This document shows positions 40,493 through 63,999 of a stretch of DNA of 64,000 nucleotides, piece after piece. The notes beneath the pieces are model-generated. The model was not told the DNA's origin. It did no database searches and saw only the letters and a program-made list of their open reading frames with translations. The translations under genes were made by a program, and so were the position numbers. Positions within the stretch are counted from its first letter, which is position 1; every line of letters begins with the position of its first letter. The stretch covers positions 32,001-96,000 of IMG/VR virus record IMGVR_UViG_3300034105_003474; one strand, given 5' to 3'. This DNA is from a virus.

Positions 40493-40496
40493 AGAT

Positions 40497-43680: not shown

Positions 43681-45006
43681 TTACGGTGCTGCTGGAGCGT
43701 TATTGAAGGTAACCTTCACGAACGACTCTGGACGCTTAACTGCAAGAGCCAAACGCTGTTCAGCAAGGATCACAATTGCGTTACGCACGAAGAAGTCTGC
43801 ATGCTGTTCGCTGATGCGAATGCTTGCTGACTCACGGTCGTAAATCTGTGCTCCCGTACCGAATGCTCCGATAAGTGCCTGACCTTCAGTCATTGCAGGG
43901 GTGTCCACAACAGGGATCCTCCACAACTTCTGCTCGCCACCCATTGCAACCGAGACTGCTACGACATAAGCGCCGTTGCCATCCTTGGTCAATTCAATGT
44001 CTTCCCAATCGTTCGGGTGCAATACAACGCCCGATGGCTCGTAGTAAGCCAAGAATGAGAGGGTAGCGGCACGACGGAGTGCGTCTGCCTTGGTGTCGCT
44101 CATACCTGCGGTTGCCGAGTAGAAACCCGACGACCAGTTGTAGGTCTGAATGCCAGTGGTGTTCATGATACCTGTAAGGTTCTCGCCCGTTCCTGAACCG
44201 TTAAGGATCTGTGCATCTTCCTGCAAGCGGAGACCGTACATCAACTCGTTGTCAATGATTGAGCGCAGTTGTGGCTCATCAGCAAGAACATTGCGGTGTG
44301 CGGCTTCCCAGTGAGCCAAGGTGCGAACAGGAGCCTGCTCACCAACGAAGGTGAAAGACGACTGTGGCTTGGCTGCAAATGCGGAACCATTACGCTCAGC
44401 AACAGGTGCCGCGTTGTTGGTGAATCCGGTCATGCGGAAGTATTCAATGATTGCAGCAGTCGTGGTGCGACTTGGGAACAAGTCACGAACACGCTTGGTG
44501 CGCATTGGAGGAACAACAAGGGCATCGCGTTGGATGGTGCCAAACTGTCCTGGGGTACCAGTTGGAAGTCCAGAGTACAAGTCTTTCTGACTGTAAACTT
44601 CACTGCTTGACTTGTATGGTGCTGGCATGTTTGCCGAACCACTTGCCAAAAGGGACTTGAACTCTGCTGAAGCAAGGAATGCCTCACCAATGCTCTTGCG
44701 ACCAAATGACTGTACTACTTGCTGTAGTTCCTGCGAAGCGTAAGCCGAAGCCTGTGCTACTGAGTCCTGTGGTTGTGAAGCCCATTGCTCAGCATCGCGC
44801 ATTGCCTCAAGACCCTCAACGAGTCCCTTGATTTCGCGGATGTCTGCCATGTTCTTGTCAAACGCGGTCTTTTGTTCTGCGGATACTACTACGGTGCCGT
44901 CTTCAATTTTGAAGTTGTCGGCGATGGTCTTGTTTTCTGCCATCTTGGTGCGCATTGCACCTTGAAGTTCAGTTAAACGGCTGTTGTCAAATGACATGTT
45001 GTTCAC
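43681..45006 (-). CDS. Major capsid protein, HK97 fold, with N-terminal coiled-coil delta domain
   Basis: TLAHW, L.D..QL.S.I...L.YGL...ED.QILNG.G, LHP.DW..I, F.RN....LAE.RLALAV.RP..FV. Confidence 0.93.
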   Translation of the reverse strand: MNNMSFDNSRLTELQGAMRTKMAENKTIADNFKIEDGTVVVSAEQKTAFDKNMADIREIKGLVEGLEAMRDAEQWASQPQDSVAQASAYASQELQQVVQSFGRKSIGEAFLASAEFKSLLASGSANMPAPYKSSSEVYSQKDLYSGLPTGTPGQFGTIQRDALVVPPMRTKRVRDLFPSRTTTAAIIEYFRMTGFTNNAAPVAERNGSAFAAKPQSSFTFVGEQAPVRTLAHWEAAHRNVLADEPQLRSIIDNELMYGLRLQEDAQILNGSGTGENLTGIMNTTGIQTYNWSSGFYSATAGMSDTKADALRRAATLSFLAYYEPSGVVLHPNDWEDIELTKDGNGAYVVAVSVAMGGEQKLWRIPVVDTPAMTEGQALIGAFGTGAQIYDRESASIRISEQHADFFVRNAIVILAEQRLALAVKRPESFVKVTFNNAPAAP

Positions 45007-46405: not shown

Positions 46406-47697
46406 TCTGCACTCTCCTCAACAGCAAGCATTGACCTATCAAGAATAAGAATCACATTTGGCGAAACAGGGGAGCCAGAAACATCAGCAACAAATCCGTT
46501 GGAAACTCTCAAATTCAACCTAGAACCTCTTACCCCTTTAGAGACCAAAACTCTCCCGATATCGTCATCCCCATAAAAGGATGTTATTCCCTTTTTCACT
46601 CTCTCGCGATGTCCTGTTACTTCATCTGCGAAGTCTTCGCGTTCCATCAAAAAATCTGGAGGGATAGCAACTTTTATAACTTCACCTTTTCTTAGATTCC
46701 CCTGATCGTCAAACCCACCTTCGGCATAAACCTCGGCACTTTCTCTGTCTAGTGAGAAATGTATACCGTTACCGTGAGCACCCAATCCTGCAAAATAATC
46801 ACCTTTTCTGAAACCATCTGCCAGATCTTTGGCTTCAACAATAACTTCGTCATTTTCTGTATCAACGATGCTTGCAATCCCGCGATACGCAATAGTCCAT
46901 CCCTTTTTTTCTAGACTTGCCATTTCCAAAGATGAAACAACTTTTGGTAGACCTGTAAATCCCTGCATCTCAGCAATCATTTCCAATTGAATATCAGGCT
47001 TAACATCATTTTTTATTTTACTGAGTCTTTTGTTGTACTCTTTTCCGCCGTCTGATTTTTTGAATTCCTGAGCGTCTTTGCCAAAAAGTTTTCCCAATTG
47101 TTTTGTTATGTCTTTAGCCATTTTATTTTTACTATTCGCGATCGTGCTAGGAGCAACAGGAATATTGTCTTCTCCGTCGGGACCAGTAGTGAACCCGTCG
47201 CTATCGCCGTCAAACTCTGCTACACCACCAATAGGGCGACCTAAAGACTTGCCGGAAAACGAGCCAGTTACAAGCCCACCACCCGGCAAGGTTGCGATAC
47301 CAGAAATAGGTTTCTCGTCAAGGTTCTCCCAACCCCGTTTGGGTGCTTTGTGGTTGCAAACCGCATAATACTTTTTCCCTGCAAGAAGGATCGTTCGGAC
47401 ACCACCACAACCACGAGCCTTAGAAATAGCGACAGCATCAGCACGATTCTCGTAATATGCATCAGACTTTGTTTCTAAACGCTTTGTCCTTTGAACCATT
47501 TTGGGCAACGGCTTCTTCTTTTTGGAAGCACGAACTTTCAGGTATTCGTCTTTACCTTTTTTGATTGCTTCATATTCTTCACGCGAGGCGCAAGGCATCC
47601 AGCCTTTACCGTCTTCGTATACGCCTTGGCATCCAAGCATGCGTGCAACACGAAGAGCCTGATCGCGCGTTGTTTTATTCTTCTCGTCTTCAGACAT
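46402..47697 (-). CDS. Head-associated protein with C-terminal ADP-ribosyltransferase-like domain
   Basis: Two A..(L/R)GC.G repeats, DGDSDG loop; YRGI...G.GAHGNGIHFS...A..YA ART-like pattern. Confidence 0.55.
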   Translation of the reverse strand: MSEDEKNKTTRDQALRVARMLGCQGVYEDGKGWMPCASREEYEAIKKGKDEYLKVRASKKKKPLPKMVQRTKRLETKSDAYYENRADAVAISKARGCGGVRTILLAGKKYYAVCNHKAPKRGWENLDEKPISGIATLPGGGLVTGSFSGKSLGRPIGGVAEFDGDSDGFTTGPDGEDNIPVAPSTIANSKNKMAKDITKQLGKLFGKDAQEFKKSDGGKEYNKRLSKIKNDVKPDIQLEMIAEMQGFTGLPKVVSSLEMASLEKKGWTIAYRGIASIVDTENDEVIVEAKDLADGFRKGDYFAGLGAHGNGIHFSLDRESAEVYAEGGFDDQGNLRKGEVIKVAIPPDFLMEREDFADEVTGHRERVKKGITSFYGDDDIGRVLVSKGVRGSRLNLRVSNGFVADVSGSPVSPNVILILDRSMLAVEESAE

Positions 47698-50758: not shown

Positions 50759-51076
50759 TTAAGCCTTAAAACTTTTTTTATTTGGAAGAGATTTAATTTG
50801 ATTTTTATACATTTCTTCAGTTACTTGCCCATCAGAACTGTATTGTGCGGACATTGAATTAAGACGGTAAAGAATATATTCCATTCCGCTTCCCTCTAAA
50901 GGGATCTCGTTTCGTGCCGACGATTCTGAAAGAATTTCAATAAGTTGATCAACAAGTTCTTTATCGGAAGCGTGTATTTCTACAAGTCCATCAATATTTT
51001 TTCCAGCGCAAGACCCATTTACCTTGTTTGTAAATGGATCCATGAATTGACCTATAAAAAACTCTTTCATGATCAC
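50759..51076 (-). CDS. Small protein, putative immunity partner of kinase 3
   Basis: Overlaps the stop of the 955 aa kinase gene. Confidence 0.5.
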   Translation of the reverse strand: MIMKEFFIGQFMDPFTNKVNGSCAGKNIDGLVEIHASDKELVDQLIEILSESSARNEIPLEGSGMEYILYRLNSMSAQYSSDGQVTEEMYKNQIKSLPNKKSFKA

Positions 51077-53940
51077 CTTTGGTTACTTGGAATTATATTG
51101 ACTATCTCATTTTCGGCGTTGCGAAGGTTTGCAAGACTTCGTACCATGCCATCATAAAGTGCTCCTGCTCGGGCTTTATTTGAGTCAGTCTTACTTACTT
51201 TCTGCAATGCGTCTGTTATGAATTGTTCACGACCGACAGCAAGTGTTTTTTCTGTTTGCACAACAACCTGTCTGTACACTTCTTGAATTCGCGCATAAGT
51301 TTCACGCCTTTGCGCGTCTGACATAGCGGGTAGTGCGGTGCGCATTGTGGCAAGAATGTCCTGATCCATTGAGAAACCCCGTTGGTAACGATCAAACAGC
51401 CCTCCGTGTGCCCTTCCAGCCCAACCCAAGTCCATCGGAACGACATGCGCTAATTTCTTGCCGTCTGGTAATTCCACTACACGACCCATACCGTTGCCTC
51501 CGTGGCGGTCGCTAACACCAAGAATATAGTTGGCTAGAACATTGGACAATCTTTCAGGAAGACCTTTATCTGGAAGAGCGTTCAGGGCTCCTTTGTTGAA
51601 ATCGTACCCACCAGCAGCACCGCCGATTACTGCCCCTTCAGGCACGTCGTTGTGTGCCAGAGGGATCATGATGTAAGGGGTTCCTTTTCGGACTGTTCCA
51701 AGAGGCTTTCGTACATCTGCTTCAAGTTTACCGTCTTGAATTGCTCCGTCTTCCAAGATCCCTACAGCAGCCAAGTAGTTCCATCCAATGAGTTCGCCGA
51801 CATTGTCGGCAGGTTTTGCAGCCTTGAAAACCCATCCCTGATTAGTCGGATTTCCATTTTCATCACGCAAAAAGTAAATTTTAGTTACACCTACAGCGCC
51901 ACCGTTGGGTTGTACTTTTTTGAAACGCTTATTTGTGTCTCGTGGGTCTGATGAAGCGTTTGCCTCTATGGCAATGTGCATGAATTTTGCTGGAACTTTT
52001 TGTATGTCTCCACCATTTTTTATATGGTCAATTGCTTTTTGTTCCGTATTAATTGTTCGGTCTTCTTCGGAAACAAACTTTCCGATAGGGGAGTTCCTTC
52101 TGTCTATCTTTAACTTACCATGAGCATTTTTTGATCTTGCAAACTTACGGAATGGTGATTTCTTTTGTCCTTGAGCCGCTGCTCTTGGTGCAGTAGGTGG
52201 TTTAGGTGTCGTTGGTGAATTGTCTTCTGTCGCTGGGAATTCCCCTGAAGGACCGCCAGCAGCAGCATAAATAAATTCTGCGAAGTTGTTGTAGTCACTT
52301 ACCGTATGGCGACCGCCATAGCCCTGTTCGTAAGAGTTCCCATCTGGTTCGCGTAGAGTAAATTTTGTTAATTTTCCATTACCGTCAAACTCTGGAGTAA
52401 GCGTGTAACCATTTCGTGTCCACATAGTTTTATCTGTGTTAAGAACCCAATTTGAATTTAAATTCAACTTTTCCAAATTGTTCAGTGGTTGATTATTAGG
52501 TGCTTGTCCCTGTTGTTGAGCAGGACGTGCTGGTCTCACAGGTCGCGCTGGTGCTGGCTCTGGAACATCATCGGCGGTTGGTTTGCGTGTAGCGCTACGA
52601 GCGGCACCTGCTGTTGTTGCCTTCTTGCGACGACCACGATTATTCCGTGGGCGACGAGCCTGTGGTGTTGGCGGTTCAAAATCTTGTGGTGCACTACGAC
52701 CGTGAGCATCTTTCCAAGCGTCACGAAGATTAGGTTTGTTGATTGCATACCATTCACGCCGTGTCAGCATTCCTGCGTTTCCACCACCTGCGCGAATCTC
52801 ACGAACACGCTTAGCGTATTCATCGTATTTTCTTAATACATACGGGCTGAAACCTTCGGTTGCACTTGCGTCTGATGCTTCGCGTGCTGTGAGTACATCA
52901 ACGTTTTCTGCTTGTGGTGCAACGCGTGGGCGTGGCTGTGGTCGTCTTTGTCCTGCTGGCGCTGGTCGGCGTGCAGGACGAGGTGTTGACGCAGGCGTTG
53001 GCGCTGTTTCAGGAATAACATCGCGTCTCCTGTTTTGTGGTCTACGAGCCGATGGTGCACCTGCTTCAGGTAGTACATCTTCGCTTCTTTCGCGACCACC
53101 ATTTCCGTTAACAACTCTGTCTAAAACACTTCCGGGTCGCAGGTCATCTGCTATGCGGTTGCCAAGTTCAGCAAAACCAGGACCGCCTCTTCGCTGTCGC
53201 GGTTTAGCACCACCTTCAAGACGATCAGCAATACCGCGCAATCCACCTTCAACGCGACCAGTCTCAGGAACTCCACCAAGCCGTCTAATCATTCGTGCGT
53301 TACGACGGTCAAGGCGACGCTTTCGTTTGTCGTCGTCTCGTTGTTCTAAGCGTTCACCGATGTCGGCGATTTGGTTGGCGATGCGACGCGCTACGCCCCA
53401 ACCGCACGAACGACCAAAACGATCGGTGATCTGTCCGCCATATCGTGTCCCTACAGGGCATCGGAAACCACCACGACGATTCGTGCCGGGAATAGAAAGA
53501 CTCGGATCCCAAATTGCTCGCACACCTTTGATTTCAAAGTTGAAAGATGATTGGGTTTGGTCAGAGATAAATGATGAAGCCTTGAAACTCAGAACATTTT
53601 GGAATTCTTCGTTTGAAAACTCAGAAAGTAAAACCTCAGATATTGAAAGAACAGGAAGGTTTTTGGTTTCTACAATTTCCGGTTTAAGGAATGCAAGGTT
53701 TGCAACCTTTTTCTCTATCGCTGATCCTGATGGGCTTGGACCTTCAATAATTTTTGATGAGTCCATTGTTTGAACTAGTTCAGGTTTTGTTATAGGTGTT
53801 TTGCCATATTCTTGACGGAGAAATGTGGCAACTTCTTTAGCGGCTTCGGTCATTGGCTTGAAGGTGGATCCTTCAGGGGTCGTTGAGACGACCATAAATG
53901 GTGTGTTGTCGCGATTTTTGATAATGAAAACTAGGTTCAT
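51073..53940 (-). CDS. Polymorphic effector with HipA/PI3-4K-like kinase domain
   Basis: Conserved module; GGAVG loop, WVFK, GELIG, SDRHGGN, PMDLG. Confidence 0.75.
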   Translation of the reverse strand: MNLVFIIKNRDNTPFMVVSTTPEGSTFKPMTEAAKEVATFLRQEYGKTPITKPELVQTMDSSKIIEGPSPSGSAIEKKVANLAFLKPEIVETKNLPVLSISEVLLSEFSNEEFQNVLSFKASSFISDQTQSSFNFEIKGVRAIWDPSLSIPGTNRRGGFRCPVGTRYGGQITDRFGRSCGWGVARRIANQIADIGERLEQRDDDKRKRRLDRRNARMIRRLGGVPETGRVEGGLRGIADRLEGGAKPRQRRGGPGFAELGNRIADDLRPGSVLDRVVNGNGGRERSEDVLPEAGAPSARRPQNRRRDVIPETAPTPASTPRPARRPAPAGQRRPQPRPRVAPQAENVDVLTAREASDASATEGFSPYVLRKYDEYAKRVREIRAGGGNAGMLTRREWYAINKPNLRDAWKDAHGRSAPQDFEPPTPQARRPRNNRGRRKKATTAGAARSATRKPTADDVPEPAPARPVRPARPAQQQGQAPNNQPLNNLEKLNLNSNWVLNTDKTMWTRNGYTLTPEFDGNGKLTKFTLREPDGNSYEQGYGGRHTVSDYNNFAEFIYAAAGGPSGEFPATEDNSPTTPKPPTAPRAAAQGQKKSPFRKFARSKNAHGKLKIDRRNSPIGKFVSEEDRTINTEQKAIDHIKNGGDIQKVPAKFMHIAIEANASSDPRDTNKRFKKVQPNGGAVGVTKIYFLRDENGNPTNQGWVFKAAKPADNVGELIGWNYLAAVGILEDGAIQDGKLEADVRKPLGTVRKGTPYIMIPLAHNDVPEGAVIGGAAGGYDFNKGALNALPDKGLPERLSNVLANYILGVSDRHGGNGMGRVVELPDGKKLAHVVPMDLGWAGRAHGGLFDRYQRGFSMDQDILATMRTALPAMSDAQRRETYARIQEVYRQVVVQTEKTLAVGREQFITDALQKVSKTDSNKARAGALYDGMVRSLANLRNAENEIVNIIPSNQR

Positions 53941-54062
53941 TGTTTACTTTCCACATTCGTGAAGATATTCAGCAAGCCATGCAAATCTTGAGGTTGCATT
54001 ATCGCTACCGTAAAATGGTATCACTAAGTGGGTGATATTAATTTTAGGTTGATGTCAATATA

Positions 54063-54359
54063 TTATTTGTTATCTAATTTTTTGTGACCCAAGGCAACTA
54101 GGAAATTATTAATTTTATCCTTATTTGAACCCTTGTACTCAAGTATTTCTGCATGACGGTATGAGTACCCATGCAACATACTCTCAAGGTCAGCCCTATC
54201 CGACGAGCCTTTCTTGACCGCCAAAAAGTGTTCATTGTCCTTTTTGTCTGAATCTTTATCCTTTGAGTAATACTTAATAATCCCTTTATCGTCCTCAACT
54301 ATGACGAGTGGATCCACCTGAACTAGTGGGTCTTTGGAGGTGATGATCGCTGCTCTCAT
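54063..54359 (-). CDS. Small protein, putative immunity partner of kinase 2
   Basis: Starts 5 nt after the stop of the 890 aa kinase gene. Confidence 0.5.
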   Translation of the reverse strand: MRAAIITSKDPLVQVDPLVIVEDDKGIIKYYSKDKDSDKKDNEHFLAVKKGSSDRADLESMLHGYSYRHAEILEYKGSNKDKINNFLVALGHKKLDNK

Positions 54360-54364
54360 GGTTC

Positions 54365-57037
54365 CTATGATCCTATAATCAAATCAGCAAGTCTGCCGGG
54401 GTCAACATCTGTTATATATTTCATTTTTCTTTGCGGTTTTACGCCAACCCTCAAAAGAGCCTGATCCCCACCCCTAGGGTTAGCGGTTCCATCCCCACCG
54501 GCTTTCAGTACATCTTCAACAACATTCATATACGGGTTTTTACGCTCTGCCTCACGGATGGACTTCTGAACCTCTTCAACGGCTAAGAGTATCTCGCGCC
54601 GACTTATTTGCCTATCTTTGAATTGCTGTCTCAATGTTGCAAGCATCTCGTTTCTTCTACCACCAACATCGTTGCCTAAAAAGCCTCGTAATCCTTCGTC
54701 GTTGCCATCATAATTTTCGTGAGCCCGCCCACCCCAGTTGACATCAAACCCAAGAGAAGGATCAATTGGGACGAACCGCTTCTTACCACTGGAGTCAGTC
54801 GCTACAAAGAAGTTCCCTCCATGGCGGTCTCTGTTGACCATGATGTAGTCCAAAAGTGTCGCTCTAACACGATCGGCAGGTTTTATTTGCGACACGGCTA
54901 CTTGATTTCTTCCGTCTGTCAGCACCCCATCAACGTAGTTCCCTGCGTGTTCATAAACAATAGCCCTACCAGCGCTGTTAGGGGCACCCGGTCCACCTTT
55001 TTGTTTCCCATCCATTCGCACACCACCGACAGGCATGCCAAGTCTACCAGCAAGATTATTGCCGATCACTTCATGAATGTCTTCGTTTTCTGCATGGGCA
55101 CCACTTTGGTATTTTAAGAAAAACTTGTTCCCAGTGATGGCGTCGGTAAACATATGCATATTGTTGGGAATGTTGCCGTTAACACCACCACCAGCATCTG
55201 ATTTAGAGAATCTTGTTGTTGCACCGTGTAGTGCTTCACCCAATAACTCATCAGGGACATCAGCCAAATCTCCACCTTTTTCTAGGTGGTCAATTGCTTG
55301 CTCCTTGGTATCCATACCTTTGTTCCCCAATGGAACGCTTTTCACATCAGGCAAACCGTCTTCACCTAATTTGTTCAGTTTTTCTGGTGCATGACCATCT
55401 TTTGCTTTTGGTGGTGAGACATCCCATCCACCTTCTGGTTCTGGTATGTCTGCTGGTCGTTGTGGTGGTTGCGCTGGTGACTGTACGCGTGGAGCGTTCT
55501 GGTCGTTGACATTATTATTTGGTACAACAACTTGATTTCGTTGCCTAAATTCAATAGCAGCATCAATTTCAGCAAGTCTTAATTCGGCAGCGGAAACTCC
55601 GTCTTTTATTTTTTCTTTTTGTCCCCACATTCGCAATAAATTATCTCTGGCTTCGTCTCTTTCTCGTTCGCTACCATTCTTTTTACTCTGCCAGTCTTCA
55701 AAGGCTCTATCAAATCCTGCTTGAGCCTCTTTGAGAAGTTCTTGATCTCTAATTTTCTTTCCCAAAACTTCTTCTTTGGACATGTTGCGCAAATTATTGT
55801 AAGCGTTCGGCTTGTATCTTTCAATTTCCCCTTCTACTGCTTTGACTAAAGCCTCGTCTCTTTGCTGGTCAAACTCCCTGCGAGGGTTTATGTCTCTTGC
55901 TGGCAGTGGCGGTGGACCTGCTCGTCGTGCAGGTGCTTCAGGTTCAGGCTGTGGCGCTCCTGCTTGTTGCCCAAATATTTGTTGGTTAACAAAATTGCCA
56001 CGAGCATTACGCTTATTGTTGTCATCGTAATACCGACCAAACCTTCTCTCTAGTTCGGCTTTTTCTTCGCCTTCAGGGAAGTCTGGTTTACGCCAATACG
56101 CATCTTCGGGTAATCCGCGAAGATCGCCAAATCGGTTAACAACATTACGGATAGAACGATCGTCCGGTATGCTCCCTCCCAACTCGTCTGCTGTTGGGTT
56201 CCATGCGGGTGGTGGTGGAATTGGTGATGATTGTTCCGCTGGTCGTTCTGGTGGTTTTGGTGCGGGTTTTCTGCGTGGCACCTTTGTCGGTACAGGTTTT
56301 GAACCGTCAACAAAATCTGCTTCAGGTTTTCTTCTAACAGTTCTTTTTGCGCCTTGTTGTGTAGCGTTTCGTCGGCGTCGTCGTGGAGCATTTGGTGCGG
56401 GTGGTTCACCTGTGCGTGGTGCGCCGGGTTGAACTATTTCTCTGTCCATTCTTCGTGCTTCTGATTCACGGAGATTTCCTCTTCTCCGAGGTGCCCGTGC
56501 TGGTTCTCTTGCTGGTTGTTCAGCATCTCCGCCAACAGGGATTCTTGGACGAGCAGGAGGTTCTATGCGTGCAGGATTTTGAACAGCGATTCGTGGACGA
56601 GCAGGAGCGCGTGGAGTAGTTACTGGTTTTCCAGTTGCTCCACCATCTAACGCGTCTGCCAAACCGCGAGCGCCACGCTCAAGTAAGCCGGGTTTATCTT
56701 GACGAGCCAAAAACCGTTGCACACGCGCATTCCGTTTTGCCAAACGAGCATTTCGTTTACGGTCGTCAACATTCTCTAGCCGTTCACCAATATCTGCTAT
56801 CTGGTTTGCGATTCTCCGAGCAACACCCCACCCGCAAGACCGTCCATAACGGTCTGTAATTTGACCGCCGTATCTTGTGCCAACAGGGCAACGCCAACCG
56901 CCACGACGATTCGTGCCCGGAATAGACAAACTTGGATCCCAAAGCGCACGAGCGCCTTTAACATCATAATTAAAAGTACTTGCAGTTTGCTCAGCGAGAA
57001 ACGCGAGCGCCTTGTAATTCACTTCATTCTTGAGCAT
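54365..57037 (-). CDS. Polymorphic effector with HipA/PI3-4K-like kinase domain
   Basis: Conserved module; GGGVNG, FLKY, HEVIG, NRDRHGGN, PIDPS. Confidence 0.78.
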   Translation of the reverse strand: MLKNEVNYKALAFLAEQTASTFNYDVKGARALWDPSLSIPGTNRRGGWRCPVGTRYGGQITDRYGRSCGWGVARRIANQIADIGERLENVDDRKRNARLAKRNARVQRFLARQDKPGLLERGARGLADALDGGATGKPVTTPRAPARPRIAVQNPARIEPPARPRIPVGGDAEQPAREPARAPRRRGNLRESEARRMDREIVQPGAPRTGEPPAPNAPRRRRRNATQQGAKRTVRRKPEADFVDGSKPVPTKVPRRKPAPKPPERPAEQSSPIPPPPAWNPTADELGGSIPDDRSIRNVVNRFGDLRGLPEDAYWRKPDFPEGEEKAELERRFGRYYDDNNKRNARGNFVNQQIFGQQAGAPQPEPEAPARRAGPPPLPARDINPRREFDQQRDEALVKAVEGEIERYKPNAYNNLRNMSKEEVLGKKIRDQELLKEAQAGFDRAFEDWQSKKNGSERERDEARDNLLRMWGQKEKIKDGVSAAELRLAEIDAAIEFRQRNQVVVPNNNVNDQNAPRVQSPAQPPQRPADIPEPEGGWDVSPPKAKDGHAPEKLNKLGEDGLPDVKSVPLGNKGMDTKEQAIDHLEKGGDLADVPDELLGEALHGATTRFSKSDAGGGVNGNIPNNMHMFTDAITGNKFFLKYQSGAHAENEDIHEVIGNNLAGRLGMPVGGVRMDGKQKGGPGAPNSAGRAIVYEHAGNYVDGVLTDGRNQVAVSQIKPADRVRATLLDYIMVNRDRHGGNFFVATDSSGKKRFVPIDPSLGFDVNWGGRAHENYDGNDEGLRGFLGNDVGGRRNEMLATLRQQFKDRQISRREILLAVEEVQKSIREAERKNPYMNVVEDVLKAGGDGTANPRGGDQALLRVGVKPQRKMKYITDVDPGRLADLIIGS

Positions 57038-58756
57038 TTATTTTTTCTTCTTTGCGCTGACCAAGTCTGGCTTAATGAAGGTTTCGTACTGCCAACGAGG
57101 TGCTGTTCTTTCAATACCGTCAAGACCTGTGTAAGTAACAAGTTCCAACGGCTTAGGAACATTTCCTGTATCGGTGATAAACTTAAATGCACCTTCTGAG
57201 TTTTTGGCAAAATTCTCAATATTTGAAATAATGTTATCTTTTGTGCTTGATTCTGCAAGAGAGTTAATCATTCGTGGGAACTTGCGCTTCTCGCCAATCG
57301 TAAATGGTCGTGAACGCTCAATACTTACCACTACACCGTTTGGTGCAACAAACGCAATTTTACTCATTGAAGGACCACCCAATAGTGCCAGATCATCTGC
57401 TCCTATATCAGCAGGTAGTTGAATGGCGCGAACCATTGCGCCGTCAACCATGTCAGGGTTCTCGCTAAAAGAACGAAGAACAGATGAAGCAACAACAGGA
57501 CGCAAAACCACTCCGTCTCTGCGGATCATTCTGCCTTCACCTTTTGGTGCGCCTTTAAGCAAGTTGATTGAATCCGATACTGAACGGTTGAATTTATCTT
57601 TTTGGAATGCACCTGTTCGTGGTATCTGTGCCATGCGCTGAATTTGAATTGTTCGCGCTGCTGTCGGTGAACCTTCTAATACTTCGGACAGATTCTCTGC
57701 TCGCGCTTGTGGAAGTTTTGGTGATGCTGTCGGGCGCATTGCTCGCCTTATGAGTTCTAGCGGACCTGGTATTTCAAACAACTGCGCACCACAAGTGGAG
57801 AAACGATTGTCCGTGAAACGACCACCAAATTCAAAACCGGCAGGGCATCGTGCTTGACGCCTGCGATTAGGCTTGAGCCTGCTGAGCGCCCCACCGCCAC
57901 CGCCGGGAATAAGTGCGCCATAAAGTCTTGAGCGAATAGGTGCGCTGAATGGGGATATGTTGCCCGGTGTTACTACAGAACCAACTGCCTGAGCCGCTCT
58001 ACCAAGTCCACTTGAAGAACCAACAAGACCTGCTTTGATTTCCATGTCTTCAGCGTCATCTTTTTCAACACGGTATCCACCGCCACGCTTCTTGTATTCG
58101 CGAACAAGCCAAGCGTTAGCGTAAGCAGAAGGGTATACATTGAATTTCTTTTTTGCTTCGGCTTTTACTCGCGCATAAAGTTCTTTGTCCGTTGGGATAT
58201 TCGCACCTTTTAATGTGGTCTCATCAGATTTGAATGTGGACACATTGATCGGCTTGTTTTCTTCTCGGTTACCCGCTGTTTCTGCACGACGCTTTCTGCG
58301 AACAGCGGAATCAATTTCTTCTGCGGACATTCTCATCGCTGTAGATTTCTTTACACACTTAGGGTATTTACCTGAATCTGCGTCTCCGCGACCACATGAC
58401 TCAAATCCGCCACCTTTTTTCGGGCGTGAAATATCAACCCATTCTTCTTCAAACCATTTCCCTAATCCACCGCGCTTGGATTCATCACCGATAAAGGTTT
58501 CTGCACCTAGTTTTGATGTACGAGACTTTAGGTAAAGTTTTGCTTTAAAGTTTAGAAGAGCCCTACTTCCGTCAAGCGGAGTTTTACGAACATCTGATCC
58601 TTTAGTGAAAAGGAATTTTGTTTTTGCATTATCAGGGTTAAAATAAATTTCCTCACCAGAGACAATATTCGTCCGTTTCATAGCAGTTTTCATACGCATA
58701 GACATACGGAGTTTTCTCGCAAAATACTCAAAGTCTTGGTTGAGATAACTACTCAT
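57038..58756 (-). CDS. Multidomain head-associated protein (DUF5872-like domains + divergent RCPxG module)
   Basis: GL.KWF.E.WVDI; YPSAYANAWLVREYKKRGG; RCPAGFEFGGRFTDNRFSTC. Confidence 0.65.
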   Translation of the reverse strand: MSSYLNQDFEYFARKLRMSMRMKTAMKRTNIVSGEEIYFNPDNAKTKFLFTKGSDVRKTPLDGSRALLNFKAKLYLKSRTSKLGAETFIGDESKRGGLGKWFEEEWVDISRPKKGGGFESCGRGDADSGKYPKCVKKSTAMRMSAEEIDSAVRRKRRAETAGNREENKPINVSTFKSDETTLKGANIPTDKELYARVKAEAKKKFNVYPSAYANAWLVREYKKRGGGYRVEKDDAEDMEIKAGLVGSSSGLGRAAQAVGSVVTPGNISPFSAPIRSRLYGALIPGGGGGALSRLKPNRRRQARCPAGFEFGGRFTDNRFSTCGAQLFEIPGPLELIRRAMRPTASPKLPQARAENLSEVLEGSPTAARTIQIQRMAQIPRTGAFQKDKFNRSVSDSINLLKGAPKGEGRMIRRDGVVLRPVVASSVLRSFSENPDMVDGAMVRAIQLPADIGADDLALLGGPSMSKIAFVAPNGVVVSIERSRPFTIGEKRKFPRMINSLAESSTKDNIISNIENFAKNSEGAFKFITDTGNVPKPLELVTYTGLDGIERTAPRWQYETFIKPDLVSAKKKK

Positions 58757-59066
58757 TTTTTGCCGATTCTTTCGGTTCTTCAGGTTCCGCTATTTCTGCG
58801 GGCAAGGTTGTCTTCCACTTTTTAGCCAACTGCCTTAAAAGTGTAATATTTTTTTCATCCAGCACATTAGTACTAACACTATGATACGACATTCCCGAGG
58901 TTGCTTTTTCAATAGTGTCCCTTTGGGACAGAAACAATTCGTTTGTCAAACTTGATGCGAACTTCGGGTCAGGGGCTACCACACCAAAAATGCCGTAATC
59001 CCCCTCAAGAAGAACATATGGGATACCTGAAACATCGGCACTCGGGGTAACTAGGGCGTATCTCAT
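58749..59066 (-). CDS. Small protein, putative immunity partner of kinase 1
   Basis: ATGA overlap with the 617 aa kinase gene. Confidence 0.5.
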   Translation of the reverse strand: MRYALVTPSADVSGIPYVLLEGDYGIFGVVAPDPKFASSLTNELFLSQRDTIEKATSGMSYHSVSTNVLDEKNITLLRQLAKKWKTTLPAEIAEPEEPKESAKNE

Positions 59067-60916
59067 ACAACACTCGCGACTATATCTTCCAACGCTGAGT
59101 CAGCCTTGAGTTTTGGTGGTTTTACAACAAGGTCTGCCAATTGTTTTGGGGTCATTGCTTGCATCTCTCTTAAGCGTGACGACGCCTTTCCGATGTCTGC
59201 CTGCATCTTTTCCATTTCTTTCAACTTTTCGGGAGACATCGCCCATTCTCCTATCAAATTACGATCTTTCAGCATCTCGTCAAGTTGACTCAAGAGACGA
59301 TTTTCCAATGAATCTGCGTCAATTTTCTTTATATCTTGGAGAACTTTTTCAGCATCCTCAACCAGTTTTGCATGCTTCTCAACTGTCCCACCGTGGCGAC
59401 TATTCAGTTCTTGACCAAGATAACCATATTGAAGACCGCCAGCAAACTTTTCTGCTGTTTCGCTGAAATCAAAAACGTTGAGAATAAAACTATGGTCAAT
59501 GGGGACTGCGTCCACACCATCAGAGTTTTCAGCAAAAAGGATGTTTCCGCTATGCCTGTCACCATTAGCCATAGCAATATCCATGATTTGCATATGGAGT
59601 AGTTTGCGACTGTCCACCTTTGCCAATGTTTCAGGGGTGGCAGAGAGTATTTGTCCCTCATATGAGTTGTGAACCAAATCGGTTACTACTCCCATGGCTG
59701 CCTGTGTCGGGGATGCTTGAACAACTCGCAAAGATGAAGATGGATACCCAAAGTCTTCTGTCATGGAAACAGCAAGAACTTCGCTCGCTGGCTCATACCA
59801 TCGGGATGCTCCTCCCTTGGTCAGAGGGGCATTGCTTAACGGGGATTTTTTATCCCAAAGTTGTGTGCGTGAAGCGTATTTAACGCCCAACATTTGACCT
59901 GTAGTTCTATCACGCAAGCGGTTCATTCCAACCACTCCCCCACCAGTGCCAATAAGTTCAAACCTCTTCAGTTCCGCAATGTTCCCATCCTCGTCGTAAA
60001 CATCAATATTTTCTAGGATTGCGTCAAGAACCAGAGTGTCGCTGATTTCGTTCAGTTTCCCGCCATTAGCGATATGTTGTGAAGCCTTTTCACCAGTATC
60101 AATGTTTTTATCCACGCTAGGTAAATCACGGGCAATGTTCCTACCGTTGGCATCAGCAACACCAATTTGTGGGTCAAAGTCTTTAGCCTTGGCAATAGCG
60201 CTGTTGCCTTTCTTGAACCCGCTAGGGGATTTGACCACGGGTGGATCAGCCTTTGGATCGTCTTTTTTATCTTTGCGACGCTTTAATGTCGCTAAGAGGA
60301 AATTCTTTGCATCAACGGTGGCGTCTCGTTTAATCTTCCCCGCTACTGCTTCCAACTGTTCTTTTTTCTTGTCAGATATTTTCCCGCGCCTATGAAGCGA
60401 GTCAGTAGCAAAGTCCAATAGTTGCGCACCGCCAGACTTCAATAAAACCATACCGAAAAGCGTAGATTGTGTCATTGAATCTGAACCATCTGCGTACATG
60501 TAATCCATTGTTTGCAGGGCAATCATCGCCGCTGCTTTTGAACCATTTTTTACTTTTTCAGATTTGAAAATTACCCGAGCGCCATCAATCAATTTTCCAG
60601 CCATGGAAGCCGCCCCGCGTGCTGCTGATTCAGCAGAAGGGGTGAGGCAGTTGGACATCTGCATGTCGGTGAACTGATTTGCGTTAGGTGTACCGGGTGG
60701 GCATCGCAACTTACCCAAAGAATCAACTATCACCCCCGCAGCACGCGCCGCTCTATGACCAACAGAGGTTAACTCTGGTCGGTCTTTTACAGTAGGTCCA
60801 AGGAAACCTTTGAACAGCAAAACATTCTCTTGAACAGCAGCAACAGATTTGCGGTATTCTGCAACTCTCTCGTTTGCGTCAAAAGCGCGAGACGATTTAA
60901 TCATCGCCTCAACCAA
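59063..60916 (-). CDS. Polymorphic effector with HipA/PI3-4K-like kinase domain (divergent RCPxG module)
   Basis: RCPPGTPNANQFTDMQMSNC; GGGVVG, GVKY, SEVLA, NGDRHSGN, PIDHS. Confidence 0.75.
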   Translation of the reverse strand: MVEAMIKSSRAFDANERVAEYRKSVAAVQENVLLFKGFLGPTVKDRPELTSVGHRAARAAGVIVDSLGKLRCPPGTPNANQFTDMQMSNCLTPSAESAARGAASMAGKLIDGARVIFKSEKVKNGSKAAAMIALQTMDYMYADGSDSMTQSTLFGMVLLKSGGAQLLDFATDSLHRRGKISDKKKEQLEAVAGKIKRDATVDAKNFLLATLKRRKDKKDDPKADPPVVKSPSGFKKGNSAIAKAKDFDPQIGVADANGRNIARDLPSVDKNIDTGEKASQHIANGGKLNEISDTLVLDAILENIDVYDEDGNIAELKRFELIGTGGGVVGMNRLRDRTTGQMLGVKYASRTQLWDKKSPLSNAPLTKGGASRWYEPASEVLAVSMTEDFGYPSSSLRVVQASPTQAAMGVVTDLVHNSYEGQILSATPETLAKVDSRKLLHMQIMDIAMANGDRHSGNILFAENSDGVDAVPIDHSFILNVFDFSETAEKFAGGLQYGYLGQELNSRHGGTVEKHAKLVEDAEKVLQDIKKIDADSLENRLLSQLDEMLKDRNLIGEWAMSPEKLKEMEKMQADIGKASSRLREMQAMTPKQLADLVVKPPKLKADSALEDIVASVV

Positions 60917-61246
60917 CTATTTGTCGCTAGATTCTGACGCTTTGTTAAAGAAAGAAAGTGGAACAACATCATCATCCTCTGCATCTTTTTTCTTAGAAGG
61001 CTTTTTCGTTTCCACTTTGGTTTCTTGTGCATCCTCAACAGGTTCATCAACGCTGATCTCTACTGATGCAGGTGTTTCAACTTCCAACACTGCTTCTTCA
61101 ACGACAACTACTTCCTCTTTGACTTCAACCTCAACAACAGAAATCTGAACTTCAGGCGTCTCAACTACGGGCACTTGTTCTTGTTTTGTGTCAAAAGCAA
61201 GACCAGAAGTGTTCACTGAGTCAAAAGGTTGGTTTTCTTTTTTCAT
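60917..61246 (-). CDS. Glu/Val-rich low-complexity protein
   Basis: Coupled to both flanking genes. Confidence 0.55.
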   Translation of the reverse strand: MKKENQPFDSVNTSGLAFDTKQEQVPVVETPEVQISVVEVEVKEEVVVVEEAVLEVETPASVEISVDEPVEDAQETKVETKKPSKKKDAEDDDVVPLSFFNKASESSDK

Positions 61247-62724
61247 TAAATGTCGCCAAGACCTGTTTCAATTTCAAGCATTTCAAGTTCCATCAAACTG
61301 CTTAGGAACTCTTTCGCTTCGTCATCCAAAAGAGTCTTTTCTTCCGACCATTCGGCAGGAATCATGTCTTCTTTGTCAAGTTCCATTGCACGCTTCTTGA
61401 TGTGTGCTTTTGCTTTTTCTTTATCTTTTGCGCGACCGTAAGACATGATTGCGTTCTTCAAGTCTTCTTCGTCCTTGATTGGGTATGAGCCGTCTGGCAA
61501 AGCCATTCCGCCCTTAGCCATTTCGTCACGCTCATCTTCGCTGTACATTGCCTTAAGGGCAACATCGGCTACTTCTGCATCAATGTCTGCGGCTTCTTCA
61601 GGATCGTATTCATCAAATCCGAGGATTTCACCGTCAACACCAACATAAACATCGTATGACTTTCCGTCTACGCCTTCAATTTCTACAGCGTAAGCGTCGT
61701 AACCATCAAACATATCTGCGTCTACAGAAACAACTTCGCCTTCAATTGACTTGGTTGCAATATCTGAAGCCTCACTGAACGAGATTACTTTTTGTCCGGG
61801 TACGGTTGCTACTTCACCGATCAAATCTTCATTCAAAAGGTGCCAGCCCATGCACTCGCCTGACGAACCGTCAAAGTAAGCCTCAACTGGCTTTCCATCT
61901 TTGCGTTGAACATCAACAACAAAAACATCAACTTCGTCCGCGTAGCCAGAGTCAAGAACTTTTCCTGCGAACATGCTCTCTGCCATTCCTTCAATTTCAA
62001 GAAGACTTGGCATTGTGTCTTGTTGTTCACATCCACCTGGGCATGATGCACAGATTTCTGAACCACCCGCATAGACGCGACGCTCAATGGCGCAAACAAA
62101 AGCAAGATCGTCGTAGTCAGCAGACTTGACACCCATTGTTTCCATGCGCTTAGCGCGAGCCTTCTTGCGTTGCTCCATCATCTTTTCAATCTCGCTGTAC
62201 ATCTTCTCTTCTTCATCATCAAGATCTTCAGGCATGTCTTCTTCGTCGTCTTCTTCTTCCATATCCACGACTTCAGTAGGCTTCTTTTTCTTTTTTGCAG
62301 GAGCAGGGGTCATTCCCTCTTCCATCATTGCGAGATCTTCTTCCATCTTTGCTCCCTTTTCGTCTGAAGCGGTAACCCACTCAGATTTTTCGGTTGCTAC
62401 TTCTGGTGCTGCGTCAGCAGGTACGGCTTCTTCCGTTTGCGTGACAGCCTTCGCTCCACACTTGCCACAAACTTTTGCGCCGGGCTTGTAGCCACATTCT
62501 GTTAACTCCAAACCTTTGGCGCATTCAATTCCGCCGTCTGCAAGAAGTTTTACTGTTGGTGTTTCGCTAGCCATGTTCGTGGACTCCTTGTAGTGCATTG
62601 TTTTTGCAATACACTTTGTTGGATTAGAGCAAACAGAGCATGGCGTCAAGCGTTTATCGCCTGACATCAGACACTGATATTTTGCTGTTTTTTGTGGTAA
62701 ACCTGTTATTGAAGTATAACCCAT
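61246..62724 (-). CDS. Acidic head-associated protein with PepSY-like repeats and an ALPDGSYPI domain (alternative start 62574)
   Basis: Two A..IA....G.V......Y.V.I....G...V.V repeats; ALPDGSYPI..DL.NAI..YGRA. Confidence 0.65.
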   Translation of the reverse strand: MGYTSITGLPQKTAKYQCLMSGDKRLTPCSVCSNPTKCIAKTMHYKESTNMASETPTVKLLADGGIECAKGLELTECGYKPGAKVCGKCGAKAVTQTEEAVPADAAPEVATEKSEWVTASDEKGAKMEEDLAMMEEGMTPAPAKKKKKPTEVVDMEEEDDEEDMPEDLDDEEEKMYSEIEKMMEQRKKARAKRMETMGVKSADYDDLAFVCAIERRVYAGGSEICASCPGGCEQQDTMPSLLEIEGMAESMFAGKVLDSGYADEVDVFVVDVQRKDGKPVEAYFDGSSGECMGWHLLNEDLIGEVATVPGQKVISFSEASDIATKSIEGEVVSVDADMFDGYDAYAVEIEGVDGKSYDVYVGVDGEILGFDEYDPEEAADIDAEVADVALKAMYSEDERDEMAKGGMALPDGSYPIKDEEDLKNAIMSYGRAKDKEKAKAHIKKRAMELDKEDMIPAEWSEEKTLLDDEAKEFLSSLMELEMLEIETGLGDI

Positions 62725-62778: not shown

Positions 62779-63999
62779 TTACATTGAGTCCATGATGTTG
62801 AGCAACGCATCAAATGCTTCGTCCTCTACACCATCAATCTCAACCATCACTCCGTCCTCGGTGACTTCTGATTTGATTTGATAATAATCCAGAATTGGAT
62901 CCAAAAGTTCTTTGACTTCGTACAGTGATCGTTCAGCAGAAGAAACCATGAGAGTTTCTTTCTCATCCAAGGACAATGACTTAGCCTCAATCTCTGAAGC
63001 CACACCACCTGAACTCAACACTTCCTTGAGAAGGTTGAAAGCGTTCTGTAGTTTTGTCATATTCCGTGAACTGATAACCCGTCCTGCTTTGACTTCAATG
63101 TCTTCATCGGCGTCTTTGCCCATGAGTTCAGCAATAGCCGCCATCAGCATGCCCATCATCTGCTTAGGGTCTTTGCCTCCGCCACCGCAACCACAGTCAT
63201 CATCGTCGTCAGAGTCTTTGTAGTAAGGCATTTCCATAACTCCGCCGTTATCGTCATCGCCTTCCATGACCCAGTTTTTCTTATCTGCCATGTAGTTGAT
63301 GAAGTCAGGCTCATCATTCATGAATTGCTTCAGAGCCTCATAAGCCTTTTCGTTGCCCTCGTCTTCGTTCTCAAACTCAACATCTTCCATTTTCATGGTT
63401 TCTTCTGTTTCATCTGATTCAGCCAAACGGTCAGCCATAGCCTCCATCATTTCGTAACCCTTTTCCTCAGAGTCAAGGAAGTCAAATATTGACTTGATTT
63501 CTTCTTCAGTCATGGTTTCAAGCGATTTGCCGGGCTTGAGTACTCCCCTAAGACGGTTATTGAATTCGTCGTCGTCCCAGTTCAACTTGCGTAGTTTGCC
63601 ACGACAGTTCTTCATGCCCGGATGATGGCATCCTTCGTTCGGCCAGAGACCAGTTGTTTCATGGTGAAGCCAAGCGCAAATATTACTCAACGGGTAAAGT
63701 TCAGGGTGGTTGGCGAGAATCACACGGCAACGGCGGAATCCGCCCGGCTTGCGCATGATTGGGCGCCAGTAGCGGAGCAGTTTTTCAAGGTTTCCACGAC
63801 GAGGACCGTATCCACGGGTACGGGCAGTAACAATTTCTTGAGGAATGATACCGCCAAGTGGGTCAGCCTTTTCAGGTGACTTTGGTTTTACGCCTGCTGG
63901 TACCTGTGGATCTGCATCAAGGTTGTATCGGTCTTCGTACCTGCGCTCAGCGTCAGAACCGCTTGGCTTGTCTCCATCAACATTGATGTAAACAACCTG
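62779..63999 (-). CDS. 3' part of a large head-maturation protein, probably the prohead protease C-terminal region; open to the window edge
   Basis: Frame stays open upstream of 63756; L.RYW...FRRC...CA.LH...TG.WP and KAGRVISSRN..KL motifs seen in actinophage capsid-maturation proteins. Confidence 0.6.
   Translation of the reverse strand, partial: QVVYINVDGDKPSGSDAERRYEDRYNLDADPQVPAGVKPKSPEKADPLGGIIPQEIVTARTRGYGPRRGNLEKLLRYWRPIMRKPGGFRRCRVILANHPELYPLSNICAWLHHETTGLWPNEGCHHPGMKNCRGKLRKLNWDDDEFNNRLRGVLKPGKSLETMTEEEIKSIFDFLDSEEKGYEMMEAMADRLAESDETEETMKMEDVEFENEDEGNEKAYEALKQFMNDEPDFINYMADKKNWVMEGDDDNGGVMEMPYYKDSDDDDDCGCGGGGKDPKQMMGMLMAAIAELMGKDADEDIEVKAGRVISSRNMTKLQNAFNLLKEVLSSGGVASEIEAKSLSLDEKETLMVSSAERSLYEVKELLDPILDYYQIKSEVTEDGVMVEIDGVEDEAFDALLNIMDSM

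Follow-up and report, generated by a model that had tools for sequence, protein, structure and literature searches.

Organization of the carrier array

The window analysed here, a 64,000-nt stretch of DNA corresponding to bases 32001–96000 of the IMG/VR virus record IMGVR_UViG_3300034105_003474 (144,873 bp, rated complete by CheckV), contains an array of five carrier genes in tandem, three of which end in a kinase domain as their C-terminal cargo. The array belongs to a single, tightly packed minus-strand operon that spans from the prohead protease to the major capsid gene. Between these two borders the operon encodes, in this order, a PepSY-containing protein, an acidic protein of 109 amino acids (aa), the kinase carrier K3 with its small partner S3, a 572-aa DUF5872 protein, K2 with S2, K1 with S1, a 931-aa protein with an 87-aa partner, a 431-aa DUF3721 protein and a 424-aa protein (Table 1). 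The junctions are mostly overlaps of 1–8 nt or gaps of 0–5 nt, the exception being a 122-nt gap ahead of K1. The Peptidase_S78 domain of the 707-aa protease sits just past the window end, and the portal gene lies upstream of the protease, outside the window. The order of portal, S78 protease, array and HK97-type capsid protein is common to this genome and to its relatives of 138–148 kb.

The original prediction for this DNA, made from the sequence alone, had described the interval 51073–60916 as three divergent paralogous kinases of the HipA/PI3K-like type. That interval also holds two small partner genes and a non-kinase carrier gene, which went unmentioned. The carrier module, the partner genes and the head-module setting were likewise absent from that description, and together they shift the reading from three kinases to an effector array.

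Table 1. Genes and motif sites of the array and its borders, in operon order (window coordinates)
Feature	Position	Strand	Remarks
Prohead protease, C-terminal part of 707-aa gene (Peptidase_S78)	62779..63999	-	upstream border of the array; same order in relatives
K3 carrier-kinase, 617 aa (slot 1)	59063..60916	-	N-module residues 29-111; Lys-rich linker; kinase domain residues 257-617
K3 motif sites	RCPPG..FTD..C 60647-60706; kinase domain 59066-60148; pre-kinase motif 60038-60103; DRHSGN 59543-59560; VPID 59495-59506	-	
S3, 105 aa, partner of K3	58749..59066	-	start overlaps K3 stop by 4 nt; dN/dS 0.13-0.18
Slot-2 carrier, 572 aa	57038..58756	-	DUF5872 in N-terminal half; diverged N-module residues 241-334; no kinase, no small partner gene
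K2 carrier-kinase, 890 aa (slot 3)	54365..57037	-	N-module residues 1-135; second conserved island residues ~184-245; Arg/Pro-rich linker; kinase domain residues 560-890
K2 motif sites	RCPVG..ITD..C 56834-56893; kinase domain 54368-55360; pre-kinase motif 55250-55315; Gly-rich loop 55175-55192; DRHGGN 54812-54829; VPID 54761-54772	-	
S2, 98 aa, partner of K2	54063..54359	-	predicted active-site binder
K1 carrier-kinase, 955 aa (slot 4)	51073..53940	-	extra 112-aa N-terminus; N-module residues 113-200; Arg/Ala/Pro-rich linker; kinase domain residues 621-955
K1 motif sites	RCPVG..ITD..C 53404-53463; kinase domain 51076-52080; pre-kinase motif 51988-52053; DRHGGN 51493-51510; VPMD 51430-51441	-	
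S1, 105 aa, partner of K1	50759..51076	-	start overlaps K1 stop by 4 nt; with K1-type kinase in 6 loci; dN/dS 0.04-0.13
Slot-5 carrier, 931 aa	47960..50755	-	N-module residues 2-89; Arg-rich linker; non-kinase C-terminal cargo of ~600 aa without family match
Slot-5 partner, 87 aa	47697..47960	-	1-nt overlap with the neighbour at each end
Major capsid protein, HK97 type	43681..45006	-	Pfam Phage_capsid E 7.7e-48; downstream border of the array-bearing head module

Three divergent kinases of one uncurated family

The C-terminal ~330–360 residues of K1, K2 and K3 align at 21–29% identity with 35 invariant columns, and a search of the phage's own genome with K2 retrieves K1 at E = 9.6e-10 and K3 at E = 2.2e-6. 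A family profile matches all three over the whole domain far beyond chance (K1, 5e-63; K2, 5e-100; K3, 2e-20 plus 7e-45, the match being split by an insert). Judged by sequence, the three domains are true paralogues, as originally proposed. All the motifs quoted at that stage are found in the respective genes: the pre-kinase motif (residues 630–651 in K1, 575–596 in K2 and 272–293 in K3), the Gly loop (GGAVG, GGGVNG and GGGVVG, respectively), the β3 Lys and the helix Glu in all three, the catalytic loop (DRHGGN, DRHGGN and DRHSGN) and the later VPMD, VPID and VPID.

In a FastTree phylogeny of 170 kinase domains, K3, K2 and K1 each fall into a clade of their own, with 31, 62 and 61 tips (support 0.998, 0.756 and 0.986, respectively); the tree is midpoint-rooted and does not resolve the order of events. 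Each of the three is closer to kinases of other phages than to its two genome-mates, and a recent local triplication as their origin is therefore rejected.

The profile of the three kinase domains, searched against 1.84 billion representatives, recovered 422 clusters at E ≤ 1e-3, of which 251 stay below E ≤ 1e-10. The matches are mostly C-terminal domains of proteins of 500–4,500 aa, and DRHxxN is nearly universal among them. Among the relatives P0008, P0028, P0061, P0063, P0070, P0080, P0093, P0118 and P0040 there are polypeptides with two kinase domains of this family and, in one case, a NUDIX domain joined to the kinase, so that the same cargo is deployed in a polyvalent form as well. Conservation was assessed on 150 representatives that are pairwise no more than 50% identical. 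In the numbering of the K2 domain, the conserved positions include G59 (94%), E97 (97%), D178 (99%), R179 (99%), H180 (88%), N183 (100%), P198 (94%) and D200 (100%), and the β3 Lys is present in 142 of 154 sequences, spread across two alignment registers.

The pre-kinase motif had been considered private to the three kinases, but it turned out to be family-wide: the matches of 149 of the 150 representatives start within the first 20 profile positions and thus include this segment, in which conservation amounts to 75% for I, 91% for A, 95% and 82% for GG, 79% for L, 98% for V/I then P, and 82% for A. In the K2 model the motif forms two helices (residues 19–27 and 37–46) ahead of the first strand, with a predicted local distance difference test score (pLDDT) of 95–98. 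These helices cap the domain at its N-terminus and are a good marker of the family, whose full signature comprises the two-helix cap, the Gly-rich loop, the β3 Lys, the helix-C Glu, DRHxxN and P-I/M-D.

The K2 domain was modelled by AlphaFold2 from a custom alignment of 40 sequences, yielding a pLDDT of 88.3 and a predicted template modelling score of 0.89. Structure comparison places this model among atypical kinases, near CotH, the type II phosphatidylinositol 4-kinase PI4K II-alpha, CtkA and HipA. Foldseek returned CtkA, PI4K II-alpha, CotH, HipT and HipA as top matches (E about 3e-4, probability 1.00). VIA-align gave Z 15.4 for CotH (5jd9; 254 residues aligned, root-mean-square deviation 4.4), 14.3 for PI4K II-alpha (5eut; 245, 4.6), 14.0 for CtkA (3akk; 232, 4.3) and 11.4 for HipA (3tpb), the four alignments covering 226–254 residues; other matches were PI4K III-beta (12.4), a bacterial Ser/Thr kinase (11.8), actin-fragmin kinase (11.6) and VPS34 (11.6). 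The nearest shapes in the ESM Atlas are HipA_2 clusters (TM-scores 0.57 and 0.68), a viral 'phage head morphogenesis protein' cluster (0.59) and plant type II PI 4-kinases. In BFVD, this kinase fold occurs in fusions with a portal protein, with MuF 'head morphogenesis' proteins and, in cultured phages of Mycobacterium and Gordonia, with ADP-ribosyltransferase proteins.

Curated family models capture little of this. Pfam PI3_PI4_kinase (PF00454) matches the catalytic loop only, with 29.3 bits for K3 (cut-off 27.1; ~40 of 241 profile positions) and scores below the cut-off for K2 (17.7) and K1 (11.8). The HipA models HipA_C (PF07804) and HipA_2 (PF20613) do not match K1–K3 at E ≤ 1; a distant relative (P0018) has a HipA_2 match at E = 2.5e-4, below the cut-off. 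Pfam CotH (PF08757) does not match K1–K3 either, the likeness being one of fold only, and another distant relative (P0085) reaches 22.6 bits against a cut-off of 23.8. Neither NCBIfam nor PADLOC gave anything significant for the kinases, and the three-kinase profile met only chance matches among PDB sequences (E ≥ 2.5). The fold matches combined with these near-empty family searches indicate that K1–K3 are almost certainly atypical kinases of the PI3/4K–HipA–CtkA–CotH assemblage that belong to no curated family. The HipA/CtkA/PI3-4-kinase-like identity read from the motifs thus stands, backed by the K2 fold, the catalytic-loop matches and the conserved catalytic set.

It is highly improbable that K1–K3 are inactive pseudokinases kept as structural or binding modules. 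Nothing specific speaks for this possibility, apart from the replacement of the DFG motif of PI3/4 kinases by P-I/M-D, and the Asp of that motif is 100% conserved in the family. Every catalytic position is retained in K1–K3, the family-wide values being 99% for the catalytic D, 100% for N, 100% for the metal-binding D and 97% for E. Moreover, the pairwise ratio of nonsynonymous to synonymous substitution rates (dN/dS) among orthologues is 0.06–0.19 in the kinase domains, i.e. they are under purifying selection.

The shared N-terminal module and the cargo slots in relatives

What unites the five carriers is an N-terminal module (N-module), common to K1, K2 and the 931-aa protein at about 74% identity and present in diverged form in the DUF5872 protein and K3. 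Within the module, R-C-P-x-G, T-D and C are invariant. In K2 orthologues, residues 1–135 are the most conserved part of the protein, with a second conserved island at residues 184–245, and dN/dS is 0.02–0.04 in the N-module and 0.22–0.34 in the linker that follows. The linkers are rich in Arg, Pro and Ala, with isoelectric points of 10–11.7 and net charges of +21 to +34. The N-module occurs in 79 of the 150 kinase-family representatives, in some of them twice. Neither Pfam nor the protein atlas holds a family or fold for it, and a profile search of the PDB returned only a spurious match to eL37 (E 0.013).

The variable linkers contain a second linear motif, which reads RESEARRMDREIVQPGAPRTGE in K2 (56399–56473, residues ~189–213) and RESEQRRMDREIEQPGAPRTGE in the 931-aa protein, with a remnant PRTG in the DUF5872 protein and a weaker echo in K1. 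It constitutes a conserved island among K2 orthologues and gives rise to blastn cross-matches between slots. Such a motif could be a site of protease processing or of binding.

The same five carrier slots lie between protease and capsid gene in 19 related loci (15 from IMG/VR and 4 from ENA assemblies, on contigs of up to 148 kb), and it is the cargo that differs. Slot 1 is occupied either by a K3-type kinase or by a protein of 788 or 562 aa that is not a kinase. In slot 3 the kinase is of the K2 type or strongly diverged. Slot 4 has one of three types of kinase, except in two loci where it is fused to slot-5 cargo, and slot 5 has a carrier of 931–1,483 aa with non-kinase cargo. In the two fusions (L007:13112-17680, 1,522 aa, and L020:13106-17116, 1,336 aa), the slot-4 N-terminus is joined to cargo of the slot-5 type and is followed by a partner of the slot-5 type, which looks like the outcome of recombination between N-modules that deleted one cargo, its partner and the next N-module. 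In another locus (L019:4876-7961) the slot-1 kinase gene is split into open reading frames (ORFs) of 775 and 253 aa, each with part of the kinase domain, which may reflect a frameshift or an assembly error.

Partner genes and cassette exchange

A small ORF follows each of slots 1, 3, 4 and 5, and none follows slot 2. The partners of the kinases are about 100 aa long and translationally coupled to them, and the overlaps of partner genes with the preceding gene measure 1–4 nt. When clustered by BLASTP, these ORFs form families that correspond one to one with the type of the upstream cargo across 17 loci. In slot 4, three alternative kinase types come with three unrelated partner families. The partner that always follows slot-5 cargo forms a well-conserved family of 13 distinct sequences. 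BLAST intermediates and hhalign (E = 6.6e-5) unite S2 and S3 in a single family, which comprises 33 clusters, all unnamed, with invariant P17, E22, G26, E59, G64, S66 and Y67. Pairwise BLASTP of the three small ORFs had found nothing, and the S2–S3 link appeared once orthologues from related loci were included. Neither S1 nor any of the other partner families has a detectable relation to the S2/S3 family (best E 0.01–0.5), and a single partner family serving all kinases is not supported. No Pfam, NCBIfam or PADLOC family covers the partner genes, which evolve under purifying selection (dN/dS 0.04–0.18).

Comparison with two of the related loci shows how kinases and partners are exchanged. The window is 93.7% identical to one locus (L008) from 64000 down to 52529, a stretch that takes in K3, S3, slot 2, K2, S2 and some 470 N-terminal residues of K1; similarity is lost over the K1 kinase and S1 and resumes, at 81%, in the N-module that comes next. 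Identity to the other locus (L017) is 75–79% over most of the region and rises to 94.7% from 52167 to 50261, which covers the K1 kinase, S1 and the next N-module. These two patterns place one boundary of the K1 cassette at about 52167–52529 and imply that a cargo domain travels with its partner gene, the breakpoints falling in the linker and in the carrier module that follows. There is thus little doubt about the cassette exchange and the cognate pairing of kinase and partner.

The diversity of the three kinases had been ascribed to an arms race with host targets or defences. The exchange of kinase-plus-partner cassettes among near-identical phages lends this idea indirect support, but the dN/dS of 0.06–0.19 in the kinase domains signifies purifying selection. 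Diversity would be generated mainly by recombination, in which a cargo domain is swapped as a unit with its partner gene and the conserved sequences of the carriers serve as anchors.

The layout of a toxin with a small immunity gene, C-terminal polymorphism and cassette swapping (PMC5576092, PMC3482391), together with the HipA-like fold, would also suit polymorphic toxin–immunity modules engaged in bacterial or phage competition, in which HipA-like kinases arrest the growth of cells that lack the partner and the immunity partners shield phage-carrying cells, as has been proposed for MuF toxins. We consider this quite unlikely. The partner genes form part of a late head operon and are translationally coupled to the kinases, an arrangement better suited to protecting the cell while virions are made than to the standing immunity of a lysogen. 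Three kinases and other cargo per virion suit host takeover over kin discrimination. In addition, no sign of a temperate lifestyle turned up in the window, where no search was aimed at one.

Predicted binding of S2 to the kinase active site

Structure prediction suggests what the partner genes may do. The predicted complex of the K2 domain with S2 scored 0.73, compared with 0.00 for the best of three controls; this mark is reached by 58 of 80 solved complexes and by 2 of 110 mismatched pairs, counts that hold only roughly here because custom alignments were used. The K2–S2 runs agree in at least 66% of contacts, with a partner pLDDT of at least 82. On the kinase side, the predicted interface consists of the Gly-rich loop (54–60), K83, 138–153, D178, H180–N183, I199–D200 and 231–238. 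On the side of S2 it includes residues 8–18, one face of the helix 35–51, and the segment 63–70 with the invariant G64, S66 and Y67, which, by elimination from the listed low-error pairs, we infer to be nearest to the phosphotransfer site in the model. According to this model, the partner probably binds the active site of K2.

S2 on its own yields a confident model (pLDDT 90.1) that has no match of Z ≥ 5 among 48,161 chains, the best Foldseek match being HicB at a non-significant E of 1.2. Given that S2 has no fold match in the PDB, we see no resemblance to a solved complex that could account for the high score of the predicted one. The absence of a structural match gives no support to S2 as a HipS-like protein, while a distant HipS-like fold would be compatible with it.

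The position of the invariant Ser-Tyr of S2, in a segment predicted at the kinase interface, would also fit a role in morphogenesis, with the kinases acting in the infected cell or the prohead on phage structural proteins, in the way that CotH phosphorylates proteins of the spore coat during its assembly, and the small proteins being regulators or substrates. Indeed, CotH is the top structural match (Z 15.4), and the genes lie within the head-assembly operon, from protease to capsid. However, CotH, PI4K II and CtkA are tied within about 1.4 Z units, and the same slots hold non-kinase cargo in relatives (788 and 562 aa in slot 1; 1336–1522 aa in slot 4), so that no kinase is needed at these positions for head assembly. 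The presence of three kinase types with three unrelated partner families in slot 4 is likewise better suited to accessory weaponry than to a core assembly step, and we regard morphogenesis kinases as an unlikely explanation.

The substrate could also be a host lipid, a nucleotide signal or another small molecule instead of a protein. This is suggested by the exact DRHxxN loop and the Pfam matches, both of the PI3/PI4 lipid-kinase type, by the alignment of PI4K II with nearly the whole model including the cap helices (model residues 8–330, Z 14.3), and by the NUDIX domain joined to the kinase in one relative. On the other hand, CtkA, CotH, HipA and actin-fragmin kinase, all of them protein kinases, score equally well, and the predicted docking of a folded protein shows that, at least in the model, the cleft can accept one. 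As phosphoinositides are rare in bacteria, a lipid substrate is further disfavoured. Overall, we see a non-protein substrate as rather unlikely.

Possible delivery of the kinases with phage DNA

The most likely reading of the array, to which we assign a probability of roughly 0.6, is that of effector kinases that are packaged in the head, ejected together with the DNA and silenced by cognate inhibitors until then. The carrier module and the basic linker would load the proteins into the prohead alongside DNA, and the proteins would exit with it at the next infection, allowing ready-made kinases to phosphorylate host targets ahead of any phage gene expression. In the producing cell, the small protein encoded downstream would cover the catalytic cleft and keep each kinase inactive. 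Packaging, ejection, inhibition and protein substrates are all what we infer from this arrangement. As for the first two, we lean towards the carrier-kinases being packaged and ejected, by analogy with known systems, because the array occupies the place of scaffold and internal-protein genes, the carriers share the N-module and basic linkers, and a portal protein and MuF proteins elsewhere carry kinases of this fold. An enzyme that needs to be silenced while it is made would fit an effector meant for the next cell. Precedents exist for packaged effectors, namely T4 Alt and the polyvalent proteins (PMC5512222), for toxins with a small downstream immunity ORF, namely the MuF toxins (PMC5576092), and for inhibition by a small protein: HipS, about 100 aa long, neutralises HipT by wedging Trp65 at the Gly-rich loop (PMC10627512).

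Alternatively, the carriers could be late enzymes of cytoplasmic takeover that are not packaged, in which case the N-module would serve oligomerisation, DNA or membrane binding, or localisation. The N-module indeed has no recognisable fold, packaging is argued from gene position and analogy, and the strongly basic linkers would fit nucleic-acid binding in the cytoplasm just as well. Nevertheless, a kinase active in the producing cell has no obvious need for a co-translated active-site binder, kinases of the same fold recur on portal and MuF head proteins, and the array sits where scaffold and internal-protein genes usually lie. Like a role in morphogenesis, unpackaged cytoplasmic enzymes are therefore an unlikely explanation.

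Several points weigh against packaged and ejected effector kinases. The case for packaging is one of gene position and analogy, and as the N-module lacks a recognisable fold or family, a role in loading is guesswork. The complex was predicted for one pair, K2 with S2, and because S1 has no sequence relation to S2 or S3, the notion that each partner is an inhibitor is an extrapolation; a cleft-binding partner could be a substrate, an activator or a packaging chaperone. The Foldseek TM-scores of the K2 model to solved kinases are moderate (0.43–0.54), and the assignment of K1 and K3 as kinases derives from their alignment to K2 and the family profile, the fold having been modelled for K2. The candidate substrates include proteins, lipids and small molecules, with a lipid kinase among the nearest folds. 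Average dN/dS values point to purifying selection, not to the positive selection that an arms race might leave. Finally, adjacent genes co-vary through linkage alone.

Should the kinases be packaged after all, the locus would define an uncurated family of kinases that counts at least 422 clusters, together with a new carrier module and new small kinase-binding proteins, as well as a clear natural case of cassette exchange diversifying the content that a virion injects. To our knowledge, few enzymes enter a bacterium with phage DNA, among them T4 Alt, the N4 RNA polymerase and some MuF toxins, and our literature search met no account of a virion-delivered kinase of this type. The novelty of the locus lies in the carrier module, in an array of five slots that houses three deep-branching kinases, and in the presence of at least four unrelated families of partners. 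More tentatively, and with less confidence than in the packaging of these particular kinases, one may envisage the RCPxG..TD..C module with its basic linker as a hitherto unrecognised, general capsid-loading device of large marine phages, which would carry an exchangeable arsenal of ready-made enzymes, in this genome three kinases from different deep clades and other cargo, each with an active-site plug that silences it in the producing cell and is shed at packaging or ejection. If so, it would be the phage counterpart of the effector–immunity logic of bacterial secretion systems, with the kinases representing a new injected family for host takeover or anti-defence and the partners new families of kinase inhibitors. 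The kinase–plug pairs could also serve as compact orthogonal kinase/inhibitor tools.

Comparison with known systems

The MuF toxins offer the closest parallel in gene layout, as they combine a head-module protein with a conserved N-terminus, a variable C-terminal enzyme and a small downstream ORF taken as immunity, and capsid delivery has been proposed for them (Jamet et al. 2017, PMC5576092). The pairing and the cassette swap described above attest to the same combination of a variable C-terminal domain with a small cognate downstream ORF. However, none of the carriers has a Pfam match to MuF (Phage_Mu_F), a weak signal of which lies on the portal in relatives; there are five tandem carriers here as opposed to one; the kinase cargo finds no mention in PMC5576092; and MuF toxins come from temperate phages, whereas the array belongs to a 145-kb uncultured phage known from its sequence. 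The weak MuF signal is a precomputed Phage_Mu_F match found besides Phage_portal in 736-aa portal proteins (L004:1-2011, also L005 and L007), and suggests a portal–MuF fusion in this phage group.

Polyvalent proteins (Iyer et al. 2017, PMC5512222) likewise include enzymes, kinases among them, that are predicted to travel inside the capsid and to become active upon invasion, with recombination proposed as the source of their variability. Their kinases, however, are of a truncated Ser/Thr/Tyr type that has lost the C-terminal lobe, while K1–K3 have a full helical C-lobe and a DRHxxN loop of the PI3/4K type. Furthermore, each of K1–K3 carries one recognisable cargo domain per chain, and polyvalence is spread over the gene array. 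On the reading favoured here, the array works like a capsid-delivered effector of the MuF or polyvalent kind with its immunity gene, yet it lacks the defining features of both, since the carriers have no MuF domain and each chain has a single cargo. In T4, Alt and the internal proteins are also ready-made enzymes that are loaded into the head via an N-terminal targeting part and injected with the DNA (PMC5512222). T4 uses a short cleavable targeting peptide and represents a different capsid lineage, whereas the putative tag here is a conserved module of ~90–135 aa plus a basic linker.

As regards the kinases, HipA and HipT with HipS (PMC10627512, PMC9325769) share a related fold and a protein of ~100 aa that, in our model, is predicted at the Gly-rich loop and active site, as HipS is on HipT. 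The array thus resembles HipT–HipS in fold and in the predicted mode of inhibition, while no HipA family model is significant on K1–K3. There is also no HipB-type regulator, the partner gene lies downstream instead of upstream, the S2 model matches no solved chain, the loop is DRHxxN, and the genes form part of a virion operon as opposed to a chromosomal toxin–antitoxin locus. We regard the resemblance between S2 and HipS as functional, with no homology implied. CotH (the spore-coat kinase of Bacillus), CtkA (Helicobacter pylori) and the type II PI 4-kinases share with K1–K3 the atypical kinase core, the Asp/Asn loop and the metal-binding Asp. Sequence identity to these enzymes is 10–15%, and what is specific to the K1–K3 family is the cap motif, the substitution of P-I/M-D for DFG, the attachment to a phage carrier and the presence of a partner gene.

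Neighbouring genes

No DNA match turned up among cultured phages, nor does the K2 kinase domain have a protein match there. The capsid protein is at most 48% identical to capsids of actinophages, and short ORFs from phages of Pelagibacter, Synechococcus and Roseobacter match the DUF5872 part. These searches yield no cultured relative and no host assignment.

Two genes lie between the protease and the first kinase. One encodes an acidic 492-aa protein (61246–62724) that contains a PepSY domain and matches, over a short stretch, the tail of a head-maturation protease family, and the other, which follows it, the very acidic 109-aa protein (60917–61246). Both are candidates for scaffold-like proteins. 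Directly after the array, the 431-aa protein (46402–47697) combines an N-terminal DUF3721 motif with a C-terminal domain that has no assignment. Its equivalents in relatives range from 379 to 1,196 aa, and given this range the gene may be another variable-cargo slot, one that lacks the N-module. Farther downstream, a gene of the histone-deacetylase family (Hist_deacetyl, 40455–41438) lies near a class II ribonucleotide reductase gene (37171–39099).

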